Shown here in pieces: positions 1,067-32,220 of a stretch of DNA of 55,448 bases. The stretch covers positions 1-55,448 of the forward strand of contig JAGVYS010000004.1 in the NCBI GenBank assembly GCA_018303125.1. The letters run 5' to 3'. Origin of the DNA: Candidatus Woesearchaeota archaeon (GTDB taxonomy: Archaea; Nanobdellota; Nanobdellia; Woesearchaeales; WJIZ01). The translations under genes were made by a program, and so were the position numbers. The notes beneath the pieces were generated by a model that saw nothing but the letters and a program-made list of their open reading frames with translations, had not been told where the DNA came from and searched no databases. The first letter of the stretch is position 1. The number at the start of each line of letters is the position of its first letter.

Positions 1067-2669
1067 TAGGACAGACCCGAAACGTACTAGCGCAGATAGT
1101 CGTCACTTCACGGAAATTCTGGCAGGTTGCAGTAAATCCTGAATTGGCAGCTAGCTGAGAACTTGAGTCATATTTGAAGACACTCAATGAGGAGCTATAT
1201 CCGTGTGCACTGATAAAAACTGTTGGAGGTCTTTTACACAAATATTTCTTTGCCACTTCGTTAATTCCTGTTTTAATGTTCTGTATAGGTATTTCCTCCT
1301 TCACCTCACAATTAAGGGTCGTGCCTGCGGGGAGCGGCTTAATAGTACCATCGAAAAAATAACCGCATGATTTCTTTAGCTCTTCACTGTCTTTCCCCTT
1401 TGAGTCATATAGGCAAAAACAGCACTGTTTCCCAATATCCTGAAGGATACTTTGTTCAATCAGTTCTCGTCCTCCTCCGCCAGGAGAACCCCCCCTCTTA
1501 GGCGTATTACTGCACCATGGATCTAAGGCATCCTGCTCAAATTCGCATAGGCCACCTCGAGATGATGCAAGGCAATCACCATTGAAATAGCGACTGCATG
1601 CTGTTATGCCTGAATACATTGTCCCCTTCACTGCTTCTCCAGTAGAGGGGTCAAGGGTATCACAAGTTCCTTCCGGGTTTTCCTCTAATTTTACAGGCCT
1701 TGTTGATTCTCCATCCAAGATCCCTTCATTTGCAGCCATGCAACGAGCTGTACCCAGACATATTTCAGGGTCATTGCAGGCCAAAACAGGCAACCTGAAT
1801 CCAACGCTGATAGAATCCCCAGAAGTTTGGGATTCATCAAGAAGTTCAACCACTTCGATAAAAGGGCAAGCCAAGCCACCTGCAGCATTTCCAAAGCTCT
1901 GTGAAAATGGGCCAATAGTAAAGGGCATTCTTCCTTTGCCTTTAACTATAATATGTTTCTCAGAGTCTAGGGACATAGATACCTTATAAGTCCCAGAGCA
2001 ATACTTTGAATCCCTCAAAAATCCCTGAAACTCAAATGGTTTTCCATCTTCAGGCACAGAGGAAGCACTAAAGGCATCAACAAGTAGCCTGCATCTCGGA
2101 CTGTCTGTAAGCTGCTCGTGCGGACCGAGCTTGAGAAGCACACCGCCAGGTTTAGGGAAATGGAATACCTCTGGCTCCTTCTTAGCCACACCGATTCTCA
2201 CGGCATCCCCTGTTATGGAGCCAGAGAAACCAGAATCACCTTTTGAAAGGTATACTGTTAAAGATTCTTTATTTCCTTCAACAAATTCATATTCAACTAT
2301 CTGCGGCCCATAATCTTCAGCAGCAACATCAATATAATATATACGGCTGTCGAGCATGTTGATGGCAGGTACATCCTTTCCATTTTCCTCATAAAGACTC
2401 AATATTTCATCAGTAAACTGAATAGGCTCATTTTTAAATACTGCCAACCCTTTTCTTGATGCTTCCTGTGTTTCAATCTCTGTAAGGCTGTCATCATACA
2501 GTGTAACTTCAGCATACTTGATGGGCCTTCCTGAATCAGCATCAACAACATTTACGCTTATTGAACCTCCTTCCTCGGTTCCATAGGAAAGTTCTCCTGC
2601 TTTTCCTGTCTGCGAAAGGTCATTTGCAAAAAGAGAAACACCAAGAGTCACAAGCATGAGAGAAGCCAA
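1047..2669 (-). pseudogene. Secreted Cys-rich protein, 3' end truncated by IS1
   Basis: Hydrophobic signal-like N-terminus, a beta-sandwich-like segment (ISVNVVDADSGRPIKYAEVTL) and many Cys. The last ~10 codons run through the IS right end. The in-frame ATG at 2702 is followed directly by TGA. Confidence 0.65.
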
Positions 2670-2787: not shown

Positions 2788-4665
2788 ATGAAATTTCCTG
2801 TTCCATTGGAAGCCTATAAGCCGCTCAAGCTTGACCCAGCAGAAAAGACACTTGGCAAGGCATCTAAGGAGATTCTTGAGAATAATATTTCACTTTTGAG
2901 GGACGCGATAGTTTTCTTTACTGCATGCGCAGGTGCAAAAGGCCTAGGAGGGCATACCGGCGGGGCGTATGATATAGTGCCGGAAATGCTTATTATAGAT
3001 GGGCTTAGAAGAGGCGGTGCAAGAATCCATCCTATAAATTTTGACGAGGCAGGCCACAGGGTTGCTATTCATTATCTCATGGCAGCGCTTGACAAAAAAA
3101 GCGGGATGAGCATATCTGATCTGCTCCATTACAGGGAATATGATTCCGGCCTTCCAGGCCATCCTGAAATAGATGCGAAGAAAGGTATACAGTTCAGTTC
3201 AGGAAGGCTTGGGCATATGTGGGGGCATGCAAATGGTGTTGCCGAGCAAAATCATGACATAAAAATCGCTCTTTTTTGCAGCGATGGTTCTCAGGAAGAA
3301 GGCAATGATGCAGAGGCAGCAAGATATGCAGTGGCAAACAACCTTAAGATGATATTGTTGGTTGATGATAATAATGTAACTATAGAAGGGCATCCGCAGG
3401 AATACATGAAGGGGTTTTCCATAGCAAGGACTCTTGAAGGCCACGGCATGGCTGTTGACATAGGCAATGGAGAAGACACAGAAAAACTATATGAGAGGGT
3501 AGTAAAGGCATTATCTGCTGATAGGCCAATTGCTCTTGTGAACAAAAGGCCCATGGCAGTAGGCATAATGGGGGTTGAAGGCTCAACAAAGGCGCATGAT
3601 GTTATCGCAACCGAGGAAGCTGCTGAACACCTGAGAAAAAAAGGATATGGGAGTGCAGCTGATTATCTGTCCTCATTGAAAGATGAAACAAAAAGTGCTC
3701 AAAGTCTCGGCTCATCAAAGGAAACATACAAGCCAAGATCAGAATTCGGAAATATAATATGCGAAATACTTTCCAGGAAAAAAGATGCAGAAAGGAAAAA
3801 AGTCCTGGTTATAAGTAATGATTTGGGCGGCTCCTGCGGCCTCAGCATAATAGGGCAGAAATATCCCAGCATTTATAGGAAATCAGGTGTGATGGAAAGA
3901 AACAACTTCCTCGTTGGTGCCGGCTTTGGCTCAAAGGATGGCTATCAGGGCATATATGGCACTTTCTCTGTCTTCATGGAGATGATAATATCTGAAATAG
4001 CCATGTCAGGCCTCAACAAGGCCAATGTCCTTGCACACTTTTCACATGCAGGCATTGATGACATGGCTGATAATACCTGCCATTTCGGCATAAACAATTT
4101 CTTTGCCATGGGCGGCTTTGAAAACTCTAACATGCTCTATTTCCCTGCTGACAGGCACCAGATGAAAGCCATACTTGAAAAGGTATTTGACAATAAAGGC
4201 CTGAGATTCATATTTTCATCAAGGTCATCTGTCCCGGACATACTTGACGAAAATAGAAACGCATTATTTGCAGGCAATTATGCATTCACGGGCAAGGATG
4301 AAATCATTAGAGAGGGGAAAAAAGGCTGCATTGTGAGCTATGGCGAGATGCTCCATAGGTGCCTTCATGTTGCTGAGGAGTTTAAAGGCGAGATAGCGCT
4401 TCTGAACAAACCCTTACTGAACCAATTTGACAATTCCATGCTGGATAATCTATGTTCATATCCTTTTGTGCTTGTTGTTGAAAGCCAGAGCATAAATTCG
4501 GGCCTTGGCATAAGGCTCGGGGCAAAGCTCCTTGAAAAAGGTTATCGTGGCAAATATTCCATAATGGGTTCATCAAAGCACGGCAAAGGCGGCTTGTCAG
4601 AGCAATTGCTTAACCAAGGCTTGGATATAGCATCCATAAGGAAAATGGTCAAGAAGATGCTCTAA
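2788..4665 (+). CDS. tkt: Transketolase-family TPP enzyme (single chain, divergent)
   Basis: GHTGG, LPGHPE, SSGRLG and a TPP motif SDG...EEG...DDNN, followed by pyrimidine-binding and C-terminal domains. The ORF track starts at TTG 2776. Confidence 0.8.
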   Translation: MKFPVPLEAYKPLKLDPAEKTLGKASKEILENNISLLRDAIVFFTACAGAKGLGGHTGGAYDIVPEMLIIDGLRRGGARIHPINFDEAGHRVAIHYLMAALDKKSGMSISDLLHYREYDSGLPGHPEIDAKKGIQFSSGRLGHMWGHANGVAEQNHDIKIALFCSDGSQEEGNDAEAARYAVANNLKMILLVDDNNVTIEGHPQEYMKGFSIARTLEGHGMAVDIGNGEDTEKLYERVVKALSADRPIALVNKRPMAVGIMGVEGSTKAHDVIATEEAAEHLRKKGYGSAADYLSSLKDETKSAQSLGSSKETYKPRSEFGNIICEILSRKKDAERKKVLVISNDLGGSCGLSIIGQKYPSIYRKSGVMERNNFLVGAGFGSKDGYQGIYGTFSVFMEMIISEIAMSGLNKANVLAHFSHAGIDDMADNTCHFGINNFFAMGGFENSNMLYFPADRHQMKAILEKVFDNKGLRFIFSSRSSVPDILDENRNALFAGNYAFTGKDEIIREGKKGCIVSYGEMLHRCLHVAEEFKGEIALLNKPLLNQFDNSMLDNLCSYPFVLVVESQSINSGLGIRLGAKLLEKGYRGKYSIMGSSKHGKGGLSEQLLNQGLDIASIRKMVKKML

Positions 4666-7101: not shown

Positions 7102-8400
7102 TTAGGAAACATCAGGCAAAATTTTCACAGAAGCAAAATACTTCCCGCTTTTGACAGTTTTTATGGAATCGTTAAGCGGCTCTTTTGTTATCTCAACATA
7201 ATATGTCTTGCAGCCTTCACTCATGCTCACATCGTTAATGACCTTTCTCTGGGAATAATACCCAAGCACTGGCCAGTTTAATACGTTGTAAACACATGAA
7301 TCGTTCTCTATGTTGTTTTTTAGGTAGATCCCCATATCCTTGGATACTTCCCTTAGGCCTTCCTGCAAAGCAATTTTTGGAGTATATGCAGTAATGTATG
7401 ACGGCGCAAAAACAAGAATAAACACTAAAAAAAATGCAGCAAGCCTTTTCATGCTTAATTCCCTTAGGCTGATGGCTGCAAGCAATATTGCTGGCGCAAG
7501 CACCGGGAAAAGGAATCTCTGGACTTCCCACTCCATTGTTTCCGGCATAGCAACGCCCTTGACTATACTAACAAAAAATGCCAAAGTAAAGAGTAACCAG
7601 AAAATAAGGAATGCATCCTTTCCCTTAATTATGCTGTATACTATTGGAATTACAAGCAATCCGAGGAAAAGCACAATTTGCAGTATTATGAAAAAAAGTG
7701 ATACATCCCAAGGAGTGGCAATTACATGTGTTGCCCTCAAGATGGGATAGAAAGGGTCTTTGAACATTGTAATGTTAAAGATAAAGAATGGCAACAAAGT
7801 AGCAATTGCTGCACCAGCAGAATAGAGCAAGAAAGATAGTTTTGGCCTCTTGAGGAGGAATAAGGTAAAAAGTAAAACAACAATCATCATGTATGTGAAT
7901 TTCATCAGGAATGAAAGAGAAACAAAAAAACCTCCAAGAAGGTAAAGCAAAAGGCTTTTTCTCTCAATGCCTTTCCAATAGCTCCATACAGCAATCATTG
8001 CAAGAAGCATTGCCAATGAGTCTGTCATGACCCATCTGCTAGTGAGGATATGGAACGGAAATAGTGCAAGAATAACCATTGAGATTCTTGCAGTCTTTTT
8101 CCCATAGAATAATCCCAGATTGTAAATCATGACAATGGAAAGAGAATTTAAAAGAACCATAACAAGTACCATAATCAGCTCGCTATTGAAAATAGGGACA
8201 AGAATAAGCGGCAGAAGGATTGGCCTCTCATAAAACTGTGCATGTGGCGAGCTTCCCGTCGCCAGTTGCTGGGCATTCATTATGTAGTTAGTCTCATCCC
8301 AGAAAAAATATGATGTATCAAGGTATAGGCGTACGGCTATTCCGACCAATAGGATAAGTATGAAAAAGCCATCATATCTCCTATCTTTTTTTTCTTGCAT
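7102..8400 (-). CDS. GT-C fold membrane glycosyltransferase (PMT/ArnT-like)
   Basis: WDETNY after the first TM helix, ERPILLP, about 11 TM segments, MTDSLA and FLMKFT motifs. Confidence 0.8.
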   Translation of the reverse strand: MQEKKDRRYDGFFILILLVGIAVRLYLDTSYFFWDETNYIMNAQQLATGSSPHAQFYERPILLPLILVPIFNSELIMVLVMVLLNSLSIVMIYNLGLFYGKKTARISMVILALFPFHILTSRWVMTDSLAMLLAMIAVWSYWKGIERKSLLLYLLGGFFVSLSFLMKFTYMMIVVLLFTLFLLKRPKLSFLLYSAGAAIATLLPFFIFNITMFKDPFYPILRATHVIATPWDVSLFFIILQIVLFLGLLVIPIVYSIIKGKDAFLIFWLLFTLAFFVSIVKGVAMPETMEWEVQRFLFPVLAPAILLAAISLRELSMKRLAAFFLVFILVFAPSYITAYTPKIALQEGLREVSKDMGIYLKNNIENDSCVYNVLNWPVLGYYSQRKVINDVSMSEGCKTYYVEITKEPLNDSIKTVKSGKYFASVKILPDVS

Positions 8401-26586: not shown

Positions 26587-27167
26587 TGAATTCAGGCATA
26601 GGAAGTTACCAGATGAAGAGATTTCTCAAGCACCTTTGCGTAGTTTCCAAAAGGTATTACGAGCGTGAGCAGGCAAGGAAGAAGTTTGATGTCCAGCTGA
26701 AGAAGGTAACCAAGTCACCAAATATTGATTCTGAGCTTGCTTTGCTCAACAGGAAAGTATCTTTGCTCCTTGATGCCGAGGCAAAAGTTGCTTCCCTTGG
26801 CAAGGATAAGGGCACTCCTGCTGCAGTAAAGCGCAGGCTGAAAATAATGGAAGAGAAGCTTTCATGGACAGAATCTGAGAGGGATTTGCTTGCAAGGCAG
26901 AACGAAAGCCTGATGAATGCCCTTACATCAGCATGGAAAATGTCTGAGGGATCAAGCGATGAAAGCATAGAGGAAAAGCTGGAAGAGCTAAAGTTAAGCT
27001 CTGAAAAGGACCATAAAGAGTTTGTTATAAAGGACATGAAAGGAAAAATAAGGCTTCTTGAAGACAGCTATCAGGAAATAAGGAAGGACAAATCAGTAAG
27101 CAAAGACAGGCTTGCTGCGATAAAGAACAAGCTTGAATCATACAAGGAAACGCTCGAAAACTTATAA
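26583..27167 (+). CDS. Hypothetical coiled-coil protein
   Basis: ATGA overlap with the upstream gene; K/E-rich helices. Confidence 0.7.
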   Translation: MMNSGIGSYQMKRFLKHLCVVSKRYYEREQARKKFDVQLKKVTKSPNIDSELALLNRKVSLLLDAEAKVASLGKDKGTPAAVKRRLKIMEEKLSWTESERDLLARQNESLMNALTSAWKMSEGSSDESIEEKLEELKLSSEKDHKEFVIKDMKGKIRLLEDSYQEIRKDKSVSKDRLAAIKNKLESYKETLENL

Positions 27168-27344
27168 GTCCTTGGGCATGACTGTTGTCCTGCCGTTAAG
27201 CACTGCCCTTTTGCATGCCTCTGCAATTATACCTTCAACTTTCTTTGTAAGCTCAGCTGAAAGGTCTGAGGCAACATTGAGCTGCTTTCCCTCATGCTTT
27301 GCCAGTTCCTTTACCCTTGAAACAACGATAAGTGTTTTTGCCAT
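27162..27344 (-). CDS. Histone-fold protein with truncated alpha-3 helix
   Basis: IVVSRVKELAK, L1 NVASD, long alpha-2 ending ACKRAVLNG, and L2 RTTVMPKDL with the R...D clamp. Confidence 0.8.
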   Translation of the reverse strand: MAKTLIVVSRVKELAKHEGKQLNVASDLSAELTKKVEGIIAEACKRAVLNGRTTVMPKDL

Positions 27345-27466
27345 AAATCCACTCTATAAGGCCTGGCATTTAAAAATTTATGGTATGTGCCATCTGTTTT
27401 GAATGTGAATTATACAGCAATCACTTTAATTTGGCAAAAAGTATTTAAGCCATTAATCTGATTGAT

Positions 27467-27871
27467 TTGCATATGGATTGGAATAAATTTTTCAAACCGG
27501 ATATACCTAAAATTGCAATATTTGTGCTCTTAGTTTTGATATTCGGCGTGCCGGCAACATCTAGAGATTGCCAGACATATGTTAAAACATCAACACCCCC
27601 TCCATGCATAGAAAAATTTACTTTCTCGAATGTTATTATTGATGCATTAGGCCTTACAAGATATCCTTATGTATTGGATGCTGCCACTTATTTTTCATAT
27701 AATCCATCCGTAGTCATATTTTATCTCACTGGATTATATGTTAGTTTATCTTCAATTTTCCATATTGCAGATTATAATTGGAAAAAAGCCTCACTTTATA
27801 CTGTAACAGCCATATTACTGACACTCTTGATTACCATTCTATTTTCTGTAATGAAGAATAGAGCATTTTAA
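27467..27871 (+). CDS. Small membrane protein
   Basis: Three hydrophobic segments; AT-rich codon usage. Confidence 0.6.
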   Translation: MHMDWNKFFKPDIPKIAIFVLLVLIFGVPATSRDCQTYVKTSTPPPCIEKFTFSNVIIDALGLTRYPYVLDAATYFSYNPSVVIFYLTGLYVSLSSIFHIADYNWKKASLYTVTAILLTLLITILFSVMKNRAF

Positions 27872-27945
27872 ATCTATATTACGGTAGGTATAGGATAGAA
27901 TTAAAGTCTATTCACTTTTGAAAACATTTTTTGTTTCTCTTGTTT

Positions 27946-28151
27946 GAGGATTATGCACTGCAATCCCGTCAATAGTCGACCTGAGTATCCTAGAGTGTAA
28001 AATCAGTTATAAGGTCACTAAGGAGTGAATCGGTCGTTTAGCGACGGCAGATATGGTGGATTAGAAAATGCGCTGTAGCTACACTTGGCTACGCTTCCTA
28101 AGGCGAAAACTTAGGGCGTGGAAAACAAAACACGCGAAGTAATAATCTCGC
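27946..28151 (+). ncRNA. Candidate structured non-coding RNA (~205 nt), family unidentified
   Basis: GC-richer island with no credible ORF. At least seven nested helices, a 5'/3' closing helix, a 6-7 bp loop-loop pairing, and a T tract directly downstream. Confidence 0.65.
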
Positions 28152-28165
28152 TTTTTTTATTTTTT
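28152..28165 (+). terminator. Oligo-T archaeal-type terminator after the candidate ncRNA
   Basis: TTTTTTTATTTTTT immediately after the closing helix. Confidence 0.5.
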
Positions 28166-28205
28166 AATCGAAAAATTTAAATAGTATATCTCAGTTATAC
28201 TAATT

Positions 28206-28757
28206 ATGGCAAGTCCTAGTAAAGAAGAAAATGTATTAAAGCTAATTTTAGAAAATAGTCCTCTAAAAGAATGGCATTTTGAAGAAATAGTTAGAGAAGC
28301 AAAAATTACAAAATTAGTGGCGAATAAATGGCTTAAAAAATATGTATCTGAGGGATTACTTAAACATATTAAAGAAAAAAAGAAATTTCCACATTTTACA
28401 GTAGGAATCAATAATTCTGTTTATTATTCTCTCAAAAGAGTTTACGCTTTGGAGCAACTTCATAAAAGTGGACTTATTCCCAAACTTTTATCTCTCAAAA
28501 CAGCCAAGACAATCATATTATTTGGAAGCATCATAAAAGGTGACTGGTATAAAGATTCAGATATCGATATTTTTATTTTCGGAGATATTTCTGATTTTGA
28601 CAAAAACATTTATGAACTTAAACTGCACACTAACATAGAACTACATATCTTCCAAAACAAAGAAGAAATGGACGAAGTCAAAACAGGACTTATAAGAAAT
28701 ATAGTCAACGGGTATGTTATAAAAGGACAGATTCAAGACTTTGCCGAGGTTGCATAA
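28206..28757 (+). CDS. HTH-MNT minimal nucleotidyltransferase (putative antitoxin)
   Basis: N-terminal HTH (WHFEEIVREAKITKLVANKWL), then LFGSIIKGDWYKDSDIDIFI (GS...DxD). Confidence 0.85.
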   Translation: MASPSKEENVLKLILENSPLKEWHFEEIVREAKITKLVANKWLKKYVSEGLLKHIKEKKKFPHFTVGINNSVYYSLKRVYALEQLHKSGLIPKLLSLKTAKTIILFGSIIKGDWYKDSDIDIFIFGDISDFDKNIYELKLHTNIELHIFQNKEEMDEVKTGLIRNIVNGYVIKGQIQDFAEVA

Positions 28758-29231
28758 ATGAAACTTACAATTGATAATCTTGATAAAACATACAAACTCT
28801 GCACGAGCACAGGAAGCATAAAGGAAAAGTCTATAGATATTGAACTTATAAAATCATTAAAGATTGTCGCAGAAAAAGGTCTTGAATTCATCAACAGCAA
28901 ATCAAAAGATATTCCCAAAGATAGTACAGATTGGACATTTGTCTTTCGAGACCATTATGAATCACTCCGAGGATTAATAGAAGCTTATCTATTATTTGGC
29001 GGAATTGTAGCAGATAATCATCAATGCAAAAATGCATACATTTGCTTCAAACATTCAGAACTAGAACTTGACTGGGAATTCCTAGAAACAATCAGACTAA
29101 AAAGAAATGCAATCAATTATAGAGGACAATTATTGAAATATGATGATTGGAAAATGCTTAAATTGAAATTTGAATTACACATTAGTGCACTAAAAGAAAA
29201 AATTGGAAAAAAACTTGAAAAAGATTTATAA
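28758..29231 (+). CDS. HEPN-domain protein (putative toxin)
   Basis: Abuts the MNT gene; all-helical; HYESLRGLIEA and RNAINY (R-x4-Y variant of the HEPN motif). Confidence 0.75.
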   Translation: MKLTIDNLDKTYKLCTSTGSIKEKSIDIELIKSLKIVAEKGLEFINSKSKDIPKDSTDWTFVFRDHYESLRGLIEAYLLFGGIVADNHQCKNAYICFKHSELELDWEFLETIRLKRNAINYRGQLLKYDDWKMLKLKFELHISALKEKIGKKLEKDL

Positions 29232-29265
29232 ATATGCATTTATATAATGATATAAAAGCAAAATT

Positions 29266-30243
29266 CTAAACTATTTCAGAAGCTGCCTTCCTCAGCCTAT
29301 TCATTATTGCTATTCCAATTCCTTTCTCTTCAACGCCCTCAACCAGAATGACATCTACTTTCTCCTCCAGCTCCCTGAAAAGCGCAAATATGCTCCTGGC
29401 ATACTCATGCAATGAGTTCCCTGCATGCCTCGCCTCATCAGCCCTGAAACTGTGGTAAATTGATATTACCCCGACCTTCTTGCTTTTCATGAGCCTGTCA
29501 GCATATTCCTGGATTGCCTTTTTCCTGCCTGTGAACAATATTACTTTTGCAGAGGGCGCATAATGCCTGTATTTCATGCCCGGTGATTTATTTGTAGATG
29601 CTGTGCTGATTTCAACTCTTCCTATTACTTTTTCAATCTCTTCCTTGGTTATGCCTCCTGGCCGGAGAATTTCAGAAGTGGAAGCATCTACAACCGTAGA
29701 CTCAAGGCCAATTCTTGACTTTCCGCCATCAACTATTGCGTCTACTCTTCCCATGAAATCACTGATGACATGCTCTGCTGTTGTCGATGATGGCCTCCCT
29801 GAGATATTTGCAGATGGCGCCGCTATTGGTATGCCTGCTTCTTTTAGGATTGCCTGTGCTACTTTGTGTTTAGGCATCCTTATTGCGACAGTCTCCAGGC
29901 CGCCGCTCGTGGCATAAGGCACAATTCCTGTTTTATTCATTATAAGCGTAAGCGGCCCTGGAAAAAAAGCATCTATCAGCTTCTTCTCCTTTTCAGAAAT
30001 GCCTGATACAAGTATAGGCAATTGCCTCTTACTGCCTATATGCACAATAAGCGGATTATCAGATGGCCTTCCTTTGGCCTTGAAGACTTTTTCAACTGCA
30101 TCCTCGTCAAAGGCATTGCATCCCAGGCCATAGACAGTTTCGGTTGGAAAAGCAACAACCTTTCCCTGCGAAAGAAGCTGTGCTGCCCTCCTTATCTTTG
30201 CCTTCTCAGGCATTGAAGGATTAACTTTTATAATCTCAGTCAT
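29266..30243 (-). CDS. sua5: Threonylcarbamoyl-AMP synthase (YrdC + Sua5 domains)
   Basis: VAFPTETVYGLG, KGRPSDNPLIVH, AAPSANISGRPS, ESTVVD, SPGMKYRHYAP. Confidence 0.95.
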   Translation of the reverse strand: MTEIIKVNPSMPEKAKIRRAAQLLSQGKVVAFPTETVYGLGCNAFDEDAVEKVFKAKGRPSDNPLIVHIGSKRQLPILVSGISEKEKKLIDAFFPGPLTLIMNKTGIVPYATSGGLETVAIRMPKHKVAQAILKEAGIPIAAPSANISGRPSSTTAEHVISDFMGRVDAIVDGGKSRIGLESTVVDASTSEILRPGGITKEEIEKVIGRVEISTASTNKSPGMKYRHYAPSAKVILFTGRKKAIQEYADRLMKSKKVGVISIYHSFRADEARHAGNSLHEYARSIFALFRELEEKVDVILVEGVEEKGIGIAIMNRLRKAASEIV

Positions 30244-32136: not shown

Positions 32137-32220
32137 CGCCGACGCCCAGATTTGAACTGGGATACCCTTTCGGGAACAGGATTTCCAGTCCTGCGCAGTA
32201 CCAGATTGTGCCACGTCGGC
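32137..32220 (-). tRNA. tRNA-Ser(GGA)
   Basis: Reverse complement gives acceptor stem GCCGACG/CGTCGGC, anticodon arm CAGGA-CTGGAAA-TCCTG, a long variable arm, T loop GTTCAAATC and discriminator G. CCA is not encoded. Confidence 0.95.

Follow-up and report, generated by a model that had tools for sequence, protein, structure and literature searches.

The locus and its homologues

In a contig of 55,448 nucleotides (nt) from a Candidatus Woesearchaeota archaeon (GenBank JAGVYS010000004.1, assembly GCA_018303125.1; the whole contig stretch is called the window here), a stretch at 27946-28151 raises the question of whether it encodes a structured RNA and, if so, of what kind. A sequence-only reading had described it as an unannotated multi-branched RNA of ~205 nt, closed by a terminal helix and carrying two pseudoknot-type pairings. 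We found that the 3' 150 nt (28008-28158) are a member of a structured element of the order Woesearchaeales, with BLAST and covariance-model homology setting in at ~28008. These searches show the segment to be the 3' three-quarters of a member of a predicted and undescribed family of structured RNA genes. The explanation that we prefer as a whole, to which we give a probability of about 0.6, is that this is a new family of mobile RNA genes and that the window holds a truncated relic of one of them.

Much of what had been read from the locus itself holds. The complementary segments that had been named are all present, complementary and correctly placed in the sequence read over 27700-28400, and a T7-A-T6 tract at 28152-28165 follows directly after the stretch. 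The stretch is non-coding: the list of open reading frames (ORFs) has none of at least 40 amino acids (aa) on the + strand in 27872-28205, and no frame is open across the members of the family. It had also been called a GC-richer island, and it is richer, but modestly so (0.40 vs 0.26-0.33 in the flanks). The hallmarks of tRNA, RNase P RNA and signal recognition particle (SRP) RNA are absent. No tRNA lies at the locus, the sole Rfam match in the whole window being a tRNA-Ser at 32137-32220, and the locus matched no Rfam 15 family, either at the gathering score when the whole window was searched or at E ≤ 10 in 27850-28250. No antisense target of at least 16 nt beyond chance was found in the genome of origin, which comprises 1.35 Mb in 54 contigs. 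The window also encodes EF-1alpha, aEF-2 and an archaeal-type glutamyl-tRNA synthetase (GluRS).

Members and distribution of the family

Homologues were sought in 401 genomes of the order, a 401-genome sample of the phylum, GTDB contigs and metagenome contigs. When the window was compared with its relatives by BLASTN, only the 3' part of the query matched, in 16 of the 401 genomes of the order; identity was 92% over 153 nt with genome G043 and 88% with G031, and G036, G052 and G059 matched too. The relatives matched by BLASTN belong to other families of the same order, none to the window's own. A covariance model (R1) built from the family detected it at E ≤ 1e-3 in 49 of the 401 genomes (12%), about 22 of them with full-length, high-scoring copies and several with two or three copies; it detected none in six genomes of the window's family. 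Matches in the phylum sample were confined to the same order, except for one weak match elsewhere in the class. Pattern scans added 13 GTDB contigs (labelled Woesearchaeota or Nanoarchaeota) and 22 metagenome contigs, and 34 distinct full-length members were extracted. The identity of 92% across families, together with close relatives that lack copies, indicates that the family is moving horizontally.

We found no description of such an RNA in the literature, and five canonical loci had no Rfam match at E ≤ 1, the raiA motif included. The earlier suggestion of an unannotated structured non-coding element of a DPANN archaeon, and of a new class, agrees with these searches and with the homologues in Woesearchaeota metagenome-assembled genomes. 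The family looks real, new, undescribed and restricted to the order.

All members but the window type start with TATAAAT(G)TTTCG and a hairpin, H0 (CUACU-AAGC-AGUAG); at the 3' end of members stands a hairpin with a GGUAAC loop, followed by T7-A-T6. Two main subgroups are distinct in the 5' domain, further variants exist, and an optional insert of two hairpins after hairpin H4 was found in both subgroups. There are also short forms, in which the 5' module is joined to other 3' parts. One of these lies in the window genome (C35:18945-19071); G082 has a unit of the same layout, and the same ATPase-like gene follows there.

The same promoter-and-hairpin 5' module heads short units elsewhere in the window genome (C35:17053, C49:22259 and C43:4014). 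An 11/12 complementarity between GAGGAUUAUGCA in the C35 piece and UGCAAAAUCCUC in the window piece had prompted the idea of a split gene, with its 5' half on C35 and its 3' half in the window, as in the split tRNAs of Nanoarchaeum. This idea was rejected: the two pieces, which would be joined through complementary tails, share a homologous stretch, and an intact C35 form is found again in G082 before the ATPase-like gene. In IMG/VR, the pattern of hairpin H5 gave one chance match. The pattern of the 5' module gave a single short-form copy of 65 bits, on the minus strand at 7497-7615 of a predicted viral contig (L117; UViG_3300004209_000001), which also encodes a Dam-type methyltransferase and a ParB-N protein; one such copy is too little to call a viral origin of the family.

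Conserved structure and covariation

A canonical member is a self-contained unit of ~190-250 bp, in which a TATA box, H0, a 5' domain closed by helix P1, H4 with its optional insert, H5, a GGGCGU linker, the terminal hairpin H7 and T7-A-T6 follow one another in this order. Covariation was scored on a 32-sequence alignment (A4) over seven helices and 42 pairs. Paired cells made up 89.1%, compared with 30-45% when the 3' partners were slid, and 14 pairs (70 cells) had changes on both sides. The covariation score was 0.212, against 0.150 ± 0.006 for shuffled alignments, and none of 500 shuffles reached 0.212. The expectation that a real RNA would have homologues with compensatory changes was thus borne out in this alignment.

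The best-supported helices were H7, H5, H4, H0 and P1. Four pairs of H7 have changed on both sides (GCGAG/CUCGC vs GCAGG/CCUGC). In H5, whose loop is G(C/A)GAAAA in nearly all members, columns 213/223 hold A-U in 26 sequences and U-A in 6; in H4, columns 135/153 hold U-A in 22 and C-G in 8. Columns 33/132 of P1 (G-C in 16, A-U in 10) covary between the subgroups. When RNAalifold was run for each subgroup from the predicted start, P1 closed the 5' domain in both, as GGCG-G-AUUUUC/GAAAAU-G-CGCU in subgroup 1 and as AAUAACGCUUUUUC/GAGAAGGCGUUAUU in subgroup 2; the region of hairpin H2 is folded differently in subgroup 2. Three hairpins that had been drawn in the window (28015-19/28024-28, 28075-79/28088-92 and 28097-102/28110-15) recur in homologues from other genomes. 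A fourth, H6 (GCGTG/CACGC, 28116-20/28131-35), stands more weakly: it lies in conserved sequence, but about half of the members have gaps or mismatches there and no pair has a two-sided change.

The first base of P1 lies 22 nt past the TATA box, where archaeal transcription should start. In the window genome, the spacing from TATA box to start is 20-23 nt for SRP RNA, RNase P RNA and tRNA-Ser, and 22 nt for the leaderless nucleotidyltransferase (NTase) gene. The helices hold 120 G.U against 46 A.C appositions, an excess that favors an RNA of the + strand, and the loops and linker are more conserved than the stems. On these patterns of sequence change, we consider it quite likely that the family is a real structured RNA encoded on the + strand.

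Predicted truncation of the window copy

Against model R1, window positions 27921-28158 scored 145 bits (E = 1e-35), while canonical members scored 160-232 bits. In the covariance-model alignment, real window sequence enters only at about model position 37, some 40 positions into the consensus. Model positions 1-36, with the TATAAAT(G)TTTCG box and H0, have no real counterpart in the window, and no such motif lies upstream. Of P1, the window has the 3' strand but not its 5' partner, and the alignment marks the P1 pairs as non-canonical. Further on, in 28075-28165, H4, H5 with its conserved loop, the linker, and the terminal hairpin with its oligo-T are all present; the sole deviation is a terminal loop of GUAAU vs GUAAC in almost all members. 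As the window has nothing that corresponds to the TATA box, to H0 or to the P1 5' strand, the segment 27946-28007 is window-specific. It is not homologous to the 5' domain of the family, and only 27996-28011 resembles a motif of subgroup 2, UAAAAUC(A/C)GUUAU.

This segment decides the fate of the topology that had been proposed. The ~205-nt boundaries and the closed multi-branch form include it, and no homologue shares it. The closing helix (27946-54/28142-49) draws on it and also uses up the covarying 3' terminal hairpin. The pairings CTG+CCGTC/GACGGCAG, CGACC/GGTCG and CTGA/TCAG all draw on it as well, and CCGTC/GACGG competes with the family hairpin H3, in which GACGGC (28043-48) pairs with GUCGUU (28033-38). 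Each of the two pseudoknot-type pairings, the kissing pair 27993-99/28080-86 and AATCC/GGATT at 27962-66/28058-62, has one strand that is found in the window only. The long-range helices and both pseudoknots are therefore unsupported, because all of them need the window-only 5' segment.

A metagenome contig (L077) is 99.66% identical to the window over 1454 nt and differs by five single-nucleotide polymorphisms (SNPs), three of them in 278 nt of the RNA region vs two in 1176 nt of coding sequence. G27997C places a C-C mismatch at the center of the proposed kissing pair, and G28058A breaks AAUCC/GGAUU and alters a G that is invariant in the family; both changes are uncompensated. The double-pseudoknot fold is an artefact of reading one sequence. 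The window copy is very likely truncated and non-canonical. From its sequence, it appears truncated or rearranged and probably decaying, and we lean towards regarding it as non-functional. It is more likely to be a relic brought in with the neighboring gene cassette than a complete RNA.

Genes and cassettes next to the element

The first gene past the terminator belongs to a few recurring classes, and more than 20 different downstream gene classes were counted. A winged helix-turn-helix (wHTH)-NTase gene with its partner comes first in 10 of 55 copies, in two NTase subfamilies, and starts ~45-70 nt past the terminator. Other downstream classes are Bro-N, small ribbon-helix-helix (RHH)-like (antitoxin-like) proteins, M48-type peptidase, DUF1801 with DUF1697, cytosine methyltransferase (Dcm) and AAA ATPase. 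The downstream genes each have their own transcription factor B recognition element (BRE) and TATA box, and the upstream genes are mutually unrelated and mostly without a Pfam match.

Arrays in which RNA and cassette alternate (RNA-cassette-RNA-cassette) were found in G173/L072, G113, L070, G036 and G327. Besides the window copy, other 5'-truncated copies with an exact 3' end stand by a cassette in G059 and L073, before Bro-N, and a 5'-truncated copy with an intact 3' end occurs in G335, where no downstream feature was identified. Both 5' subgroups are found with both terminator types, and both with and without the insert; these mosaic combinations imply recombination within the element. The arrays, the mosaicism and the 3'-intact truncated copies by recurrent cassettes led us to propose that the RNA gene serves as a landing pad, offering shared homology for cassette exchange. 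We put this forward tentatively, at somewhat less than even odds.

Three further features were observed at these junctions. In the tandem arrays, another conserved structured element, E2, directly precedes the second RNA copy, with no gap; it contains an X-like hairpin (GGCGGAUUUGAGGAAAGCGCC), then ...UUUCUGNUUCACGACG..., and a hairpin with a GGUAAC or AAUAAC loop, and it ends at the TATA box (L033:11260-11517; L070:6980-7182; L104 ~2900-3156, minus strand; L043 ~1300-1373, minus strand). In G059 (contig L035), two copies of CAAGTCCCCCCTCCGACAGTTTTTTT, a sequence similar to a tRNA 3' end, lie ~160 nt from each other immediately 5' of a 48-nt RNA remnant and Bro-N, suggesting an att-type duplication. 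Where a Bro-N or small RHH-like gene follows, a conserved motif, CCACTNNCCACTGGACA, stands between the terminator of the RNA and the promoter of that gene (L032, L067, L074, L082, L083, L084, L053 and L063).

Contrary evidence and alternative explanations

Several observations weigh against the reading of a mobile RNA gene with a relic in the window. The 32 aligned sequences make up two or three subgroups, and independent compensatory events are few because the sequences fall into so few clades. For the 5' strand of P1, a second, local partner is available and covaries just as well; since CG(C/U)UAC and its complement are repeated many times over the 5' half, alternative pairings abound. H0, although placed between the TATA box and the predicted start, has an RNA-like excess of G.U (17 vs 4), which fits the proposed start site poorly. 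On the minus strand, the conserved TATAAATGTTTCG reads as a BRE (CGAAAC) plus TATA, CGAAAC-ATTTATA, facing leftward, and resembles the BRE/TATA pairs before leaderless genes of these genomes. In 26 of 52 loci, a divergent ORF (≥60 aa) begins 23-26 nt away from TATAAATGTTTCG; these ORFs at the left end of the family are unrelated to each other (e.g. L058, L063 and L084), and the window has no equivalent. With ORFs at such a distance, the element and an unrelated neighbor have one TATA box in common, which suggests either a bidirectional promoter or insertion or recombination at TATA boxes, and part of the conservation may lie at the DNA or promoter level. No direct repeats flank the NTase cassette of the window, and no recombinase or other mobility gene was identified, no systematic integrase search having been made. 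Finally, the sole TATA-like box upstream of the window copy (TTTTAAAT at 27866-73) may still drive some transcription of the relic.

The shared TATA box is the main argument for a role at the DNA level, in which the element would be a portable bidirectional promoter, terminator and insulator, or an integron-like recombination site at cassette boundaries, its hairpins being used as DNA. The leftward BRE and TATA, the divergent ORFs, the arrays with E2, the truncated and mosaic copies and the recurring CG(C/U)UAC would all suit such a module. Nevertheless, we consider it unlikely: the G.U excess is strand-specific, on that same strand the unit ends in a hairpin with a double oligo-T, P1 starts exactly at the predicted rightward start in both subgroups, and loops and linker are more conserved than stems, as for a folded RNA. 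In addition, no integrase was noted in the neighborhoods viewed, and an attC site is much simpler than this element. It is quite improbable that the window copy is itself a complete and functional RNA of ~205 nt, with a lineage-specific 5' domain, the proposed closing helix and the two pseudoknots. The proposed segments are all complementary, the minimum free energy fold of 27940-28160 uses several of them and is mildly more stable than whole-sequence shuffles (z ~ -2.2, similar on both strands), and the copy is nearly unchanged in a second sample (contig L077). However, its 5' segment is in no other member and, when shuffled (mononucleotide), folds as stably (-61.4 vs -59.7 ± 3.0 kcal/mol; 79 of 300 shuffles as good; z = -0.6). 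Two of the three SNPs in the RNA region break the two tertiary pairs, the proposed helices consume H7 and H3, and a promoter of the family type is missing; a T6 run (27926-31) lies between the 27866-73 box and the proposed 5' end.

Two further explanations look to the neighboring gene and to known RNAs. The RNA might be a partner of the downstream wHTH-NTase/HEPN-like pair, acting as a type III-like antitoxin, a decoy or an NTase substrate. The order of RNA gene, terminator and toxin-type genes is that of type III systems, the NTase is the first gene downstream of 10 of 55 copies in two subfamilies, and a published account describes RNA-based regulation of a HEPN-type AbiF system (PMC12373285). 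We give this only a slight chance, as most copies precede genes of the other classes, the NTase gene has its own BRE/TATA with an operator-like palindrome, and tandem repeats of the ToxI type, which were sought in the RNA element, were not found. The same lack of repeats, with an NTase and an unclassified partner downstream, led us to reject a ToxI-like antitoxin of a type III toxin-antitoxin system. That the element is a divergent form of something known (raiA-motif RNA, RNase P or SRP RNA, an NTase riboswitch leader or a small protein-coding gene) is barely credible. In size and in its series of hairpins the element is reminiscent of raiA, a gene placed after a terminator brings a riboswitch to mind, and some subgroup-1 members have an AUG at the predicted start, opening an 18-aa frame. 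However, the Rfam searches of the window and of the five canonical loci were negative, and all 8 genomes tested have their RNase P and SRP RNA at other sites: in the window genome, RF00373 and RF01857 are above the cut-off at other loci (C26 and C53), and the same holds for 7 relatives, which disposes of a housekeeping RNA. A riboswitch or cis-acting leader was rejected on the variety of downstream genes and the separate BRE/TATA between terminator and gene, and a small ORF because many members have AUA instead of the AUG or lack the codon altogether, and none of the frames stays open throughout the family.

Comparison with known systems

The sequence-only reading had been reminded of raiA-motif RNA (RF03072), which occurs in Bacillota and Actinomycetota. 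The two have in common a length of ~200 nt, a multi-hairpin and non-coding nature, conserved loops and junctions, and a stand-alone gene with a terminator. The likeness goes no further, since RF03072 matched neither the window at E ≤ 10 nor the canonical loci at E ≤ 1 and the host is an archaeon. The new family is archaeal, with a TATA promoter and an oligo-T terminator; it is patchy within one order, as if spread by horizontal gene transfer, is linked to cassettes, and varies in its 5' domain by subgroup.

ToxI/ToxN and abiF-motif RNA likewise combine an RNA gene, a terminator and toxin-type genes in a mobile or defense context, which the NTase/HEPN-like pair at 10 of 55 copies resembles. In contrast to them, the new family has no tandem repeats and mostly precedes unrelated genes with promoters of their own, and the downstream proteins do not belong to the ToxN, AbiQ or Abi_2 families.

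Integration hot spots at tRNA and tmRNA genes also place variable accessory DNA directly 3' of a structured RNA gene. As with these hot spots and with tRNA-linked repeats, partial copies with an exact 3' end stand by cargo (the window, G059 and L073), and tandem RNA repeats bracket cargo. The difference is that the new RNA is itself accessory (12% of genomes, not in the window's family), that no integrase was seen, and that short att-type direct repeats are absent around the window cassette.

Integron gene-cassette arrays with attC sites have been reported in Archaea. They share with the new family a conserved structured element that alternates with one- or two-gene cassettes rich in toxin-antitoxin genes, and a mosaic element. 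An attC site, however, is a single imperfect hairpin of 57-141 nt that follows its cassette, whereas the new element, judged by eye, is a multi-hairpin unit of 190-250 bp with five or more hairpins, a promoter and a terminator, and precedes the cassette. No IntI gene and no R'/R'' core sites were identified, no attC-specific model having been run and no systematic integrase search made.

HEARO/IscB omega-RNA, ROOL and GOLLD are structured non-coding RNAs that spread with mobile DNA and are patchy and multi-copy, as the new family is. The latter has no adjacent IscB/TnpB, no variable guide and no Rfam match, and is much smaller than ROOL and GOLLD.

Proposed mechanism and significance

According to the explanation that we prefer, the family would be transcribed on the + strand as a stand-alone RNA of ~170-230 nt, whose invariant loops and linker would probably bind a protein, and the RNA gene would belong to the mobile accessory gene pool. 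From the window copy, the TATA box and H0 have been lost or recombined away, along with the P1 5' strand. This copy would be a recombination relic, brought in by the NTase cassette, that has probably ceased to work as an RNA.

A wider and rather improbable extension is that the Woesearchaeota possess an undescribed platform for cassette exchange, with the RNA family as its hallmark. A portable RNA gene would then insert at the TATA boxes of leaderless genes, its outward BRE keeping the neighbor expressed, and homology at the RNA or DNA level would capture toxin-antitoxin, Bro-N, restriction-modification and other accessory cassettes and stack them into arrays. Such a platform would be integron-like without a recognizable integrase, and the structured RNA itself might take part in recombination or in the control of cassettes.

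To our knowledge, almost no non-coding RNAs of DPANN archaea have been described beyond the universal ones. The present family of structured RNAs is well conserved, is confined to a single order and is linked to the pool of accessory and defense genes. If expressed, it would be a new orphan RNA class of tractable size, with clear conserved loops for probing protein partners. Its fixed place on a TATA box that it shares with a divergent leaderless gene, and the RNA-cassette arrays, may reveal by what means toxin-antitoxin and defense cassettes are shuffled in ultra-small archaea that have no obvious transposases or integrases. For the window itself the message is more modest, its copy being truncated.

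The accessory islet and the NTase cassette of the window

The features of the window around the RNA copy are listed in Table 1.

Table 1. Features of the window at and around the truncated RNA copy, with the basis of each assignment
Feature	Position	Strand	Basis or remark
Accessory islet (small ORF, RNA relic, wHTH-NTase and partner)	27380..29265		Not in same-family genomes; left edge approximate
134-aa ORF, TTG start	27467..27871	+	ORF list; no Pfam match
Window-only 5' segment, with one strand of each long-range helix or pseudoknot proposed earlier	27946..28007	+	BLAST, covariance model
Hairpin H2 (UCACU-AAGG-AGUGA)	28015..28028	+	Conserved in subgroup 1; U-A and C-G each change to U.G
Hairpin H3 (GUCGUU-UAGC-GACGGC)	28033..28048	+	RNAalifold subgroup-1 consensus; pairs 93-106 and 94-105 are C-G / U.G
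Orphan P1 3' strand (GAAAAUGCGCU); 5' partner is GGCGGAUUUUC in canonical members	28064..28074	+	Covariance-model alignment
Hairpin H4 (GUAGC-UACACUUG-GCUAC), variable loop	28075..28092	+	95% of cells paired
Hairpin H5 (CCUAAG-GCGAAAA-CUUAGG)	28097..28115	+	99% of cells paired; most conserved part of the family
Conserved linker GCGUGG... and subgroup-specific hairpin H6 (GCGUG/CACGC)	28116..28135	+	Overlaps H7 by two base pairs
3' terminal hairpin H7 (GCGA-AGUAAUAAUC-UCGC; hairpin at 28134-51), then T7-A-T6, archaeal oligo-T terminator	28134..28165	+	95% of cells paired
Promoter of the downstream gene, AATCGAAAAATTTAAATA (BRE plus TATA), with palindrome GTATA-N7-TATAC	28166..28205	+	Sequence; ATG 22 nt past TATA
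wHTH-NTase (MNT-like), 183 aa	28206..28757	+	Pfam Polbeta, NTP_transf_2; PADLOC candidate family PDC-M05A
157-aa partner protein, HEPN-like only by context	28758..29231	+	No Pfam or PADLOC match

In four genomes of the window's family, the corresponding region has o165, o194 (three of the four), a histone-like gene on the opposite strand and GluRS on the opposite strand, with a gap of 270-550 nt between o194 and GluRS and without the islet. Compared with them, the window has an extra ~1.9 kb plus Sua5 (29266-30243), which follows GluRS with an 8-nt overlap; in six same-family genomes, Sua5 had no match at E ≤ 1e-20. The histone-like gene of the window lies at 27162-27344 on the minus strand, and in the same-family genomes GluRS abuts the promoter of the histone-like gene instead.

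The NTase and its partner have 86% and 88% amino-acid identity, respectively, to proteins of G052, a genome of a different family, and the junction from terminator to promoter recurs in G052, G328b and L068. The position of the ATG relative to the TATA box indicates a leaderless mRNA. Compared with MNT-HEPN (type VII-like) systems, the NTase domain was found by Pfam, and the partner carries RNAINY in place of the Rx4-6H motif that characterizes HEPN proteins.

Palindromes were observed between TATA box and ATG in the NTase promoters, GTATA-N7-TATAC in the window (28184-28200) and ATACCT-N6-AGGTAT at the NTase-208 loci (e.g. L072). These are probably autoregulatory operators for the wHTH domain.

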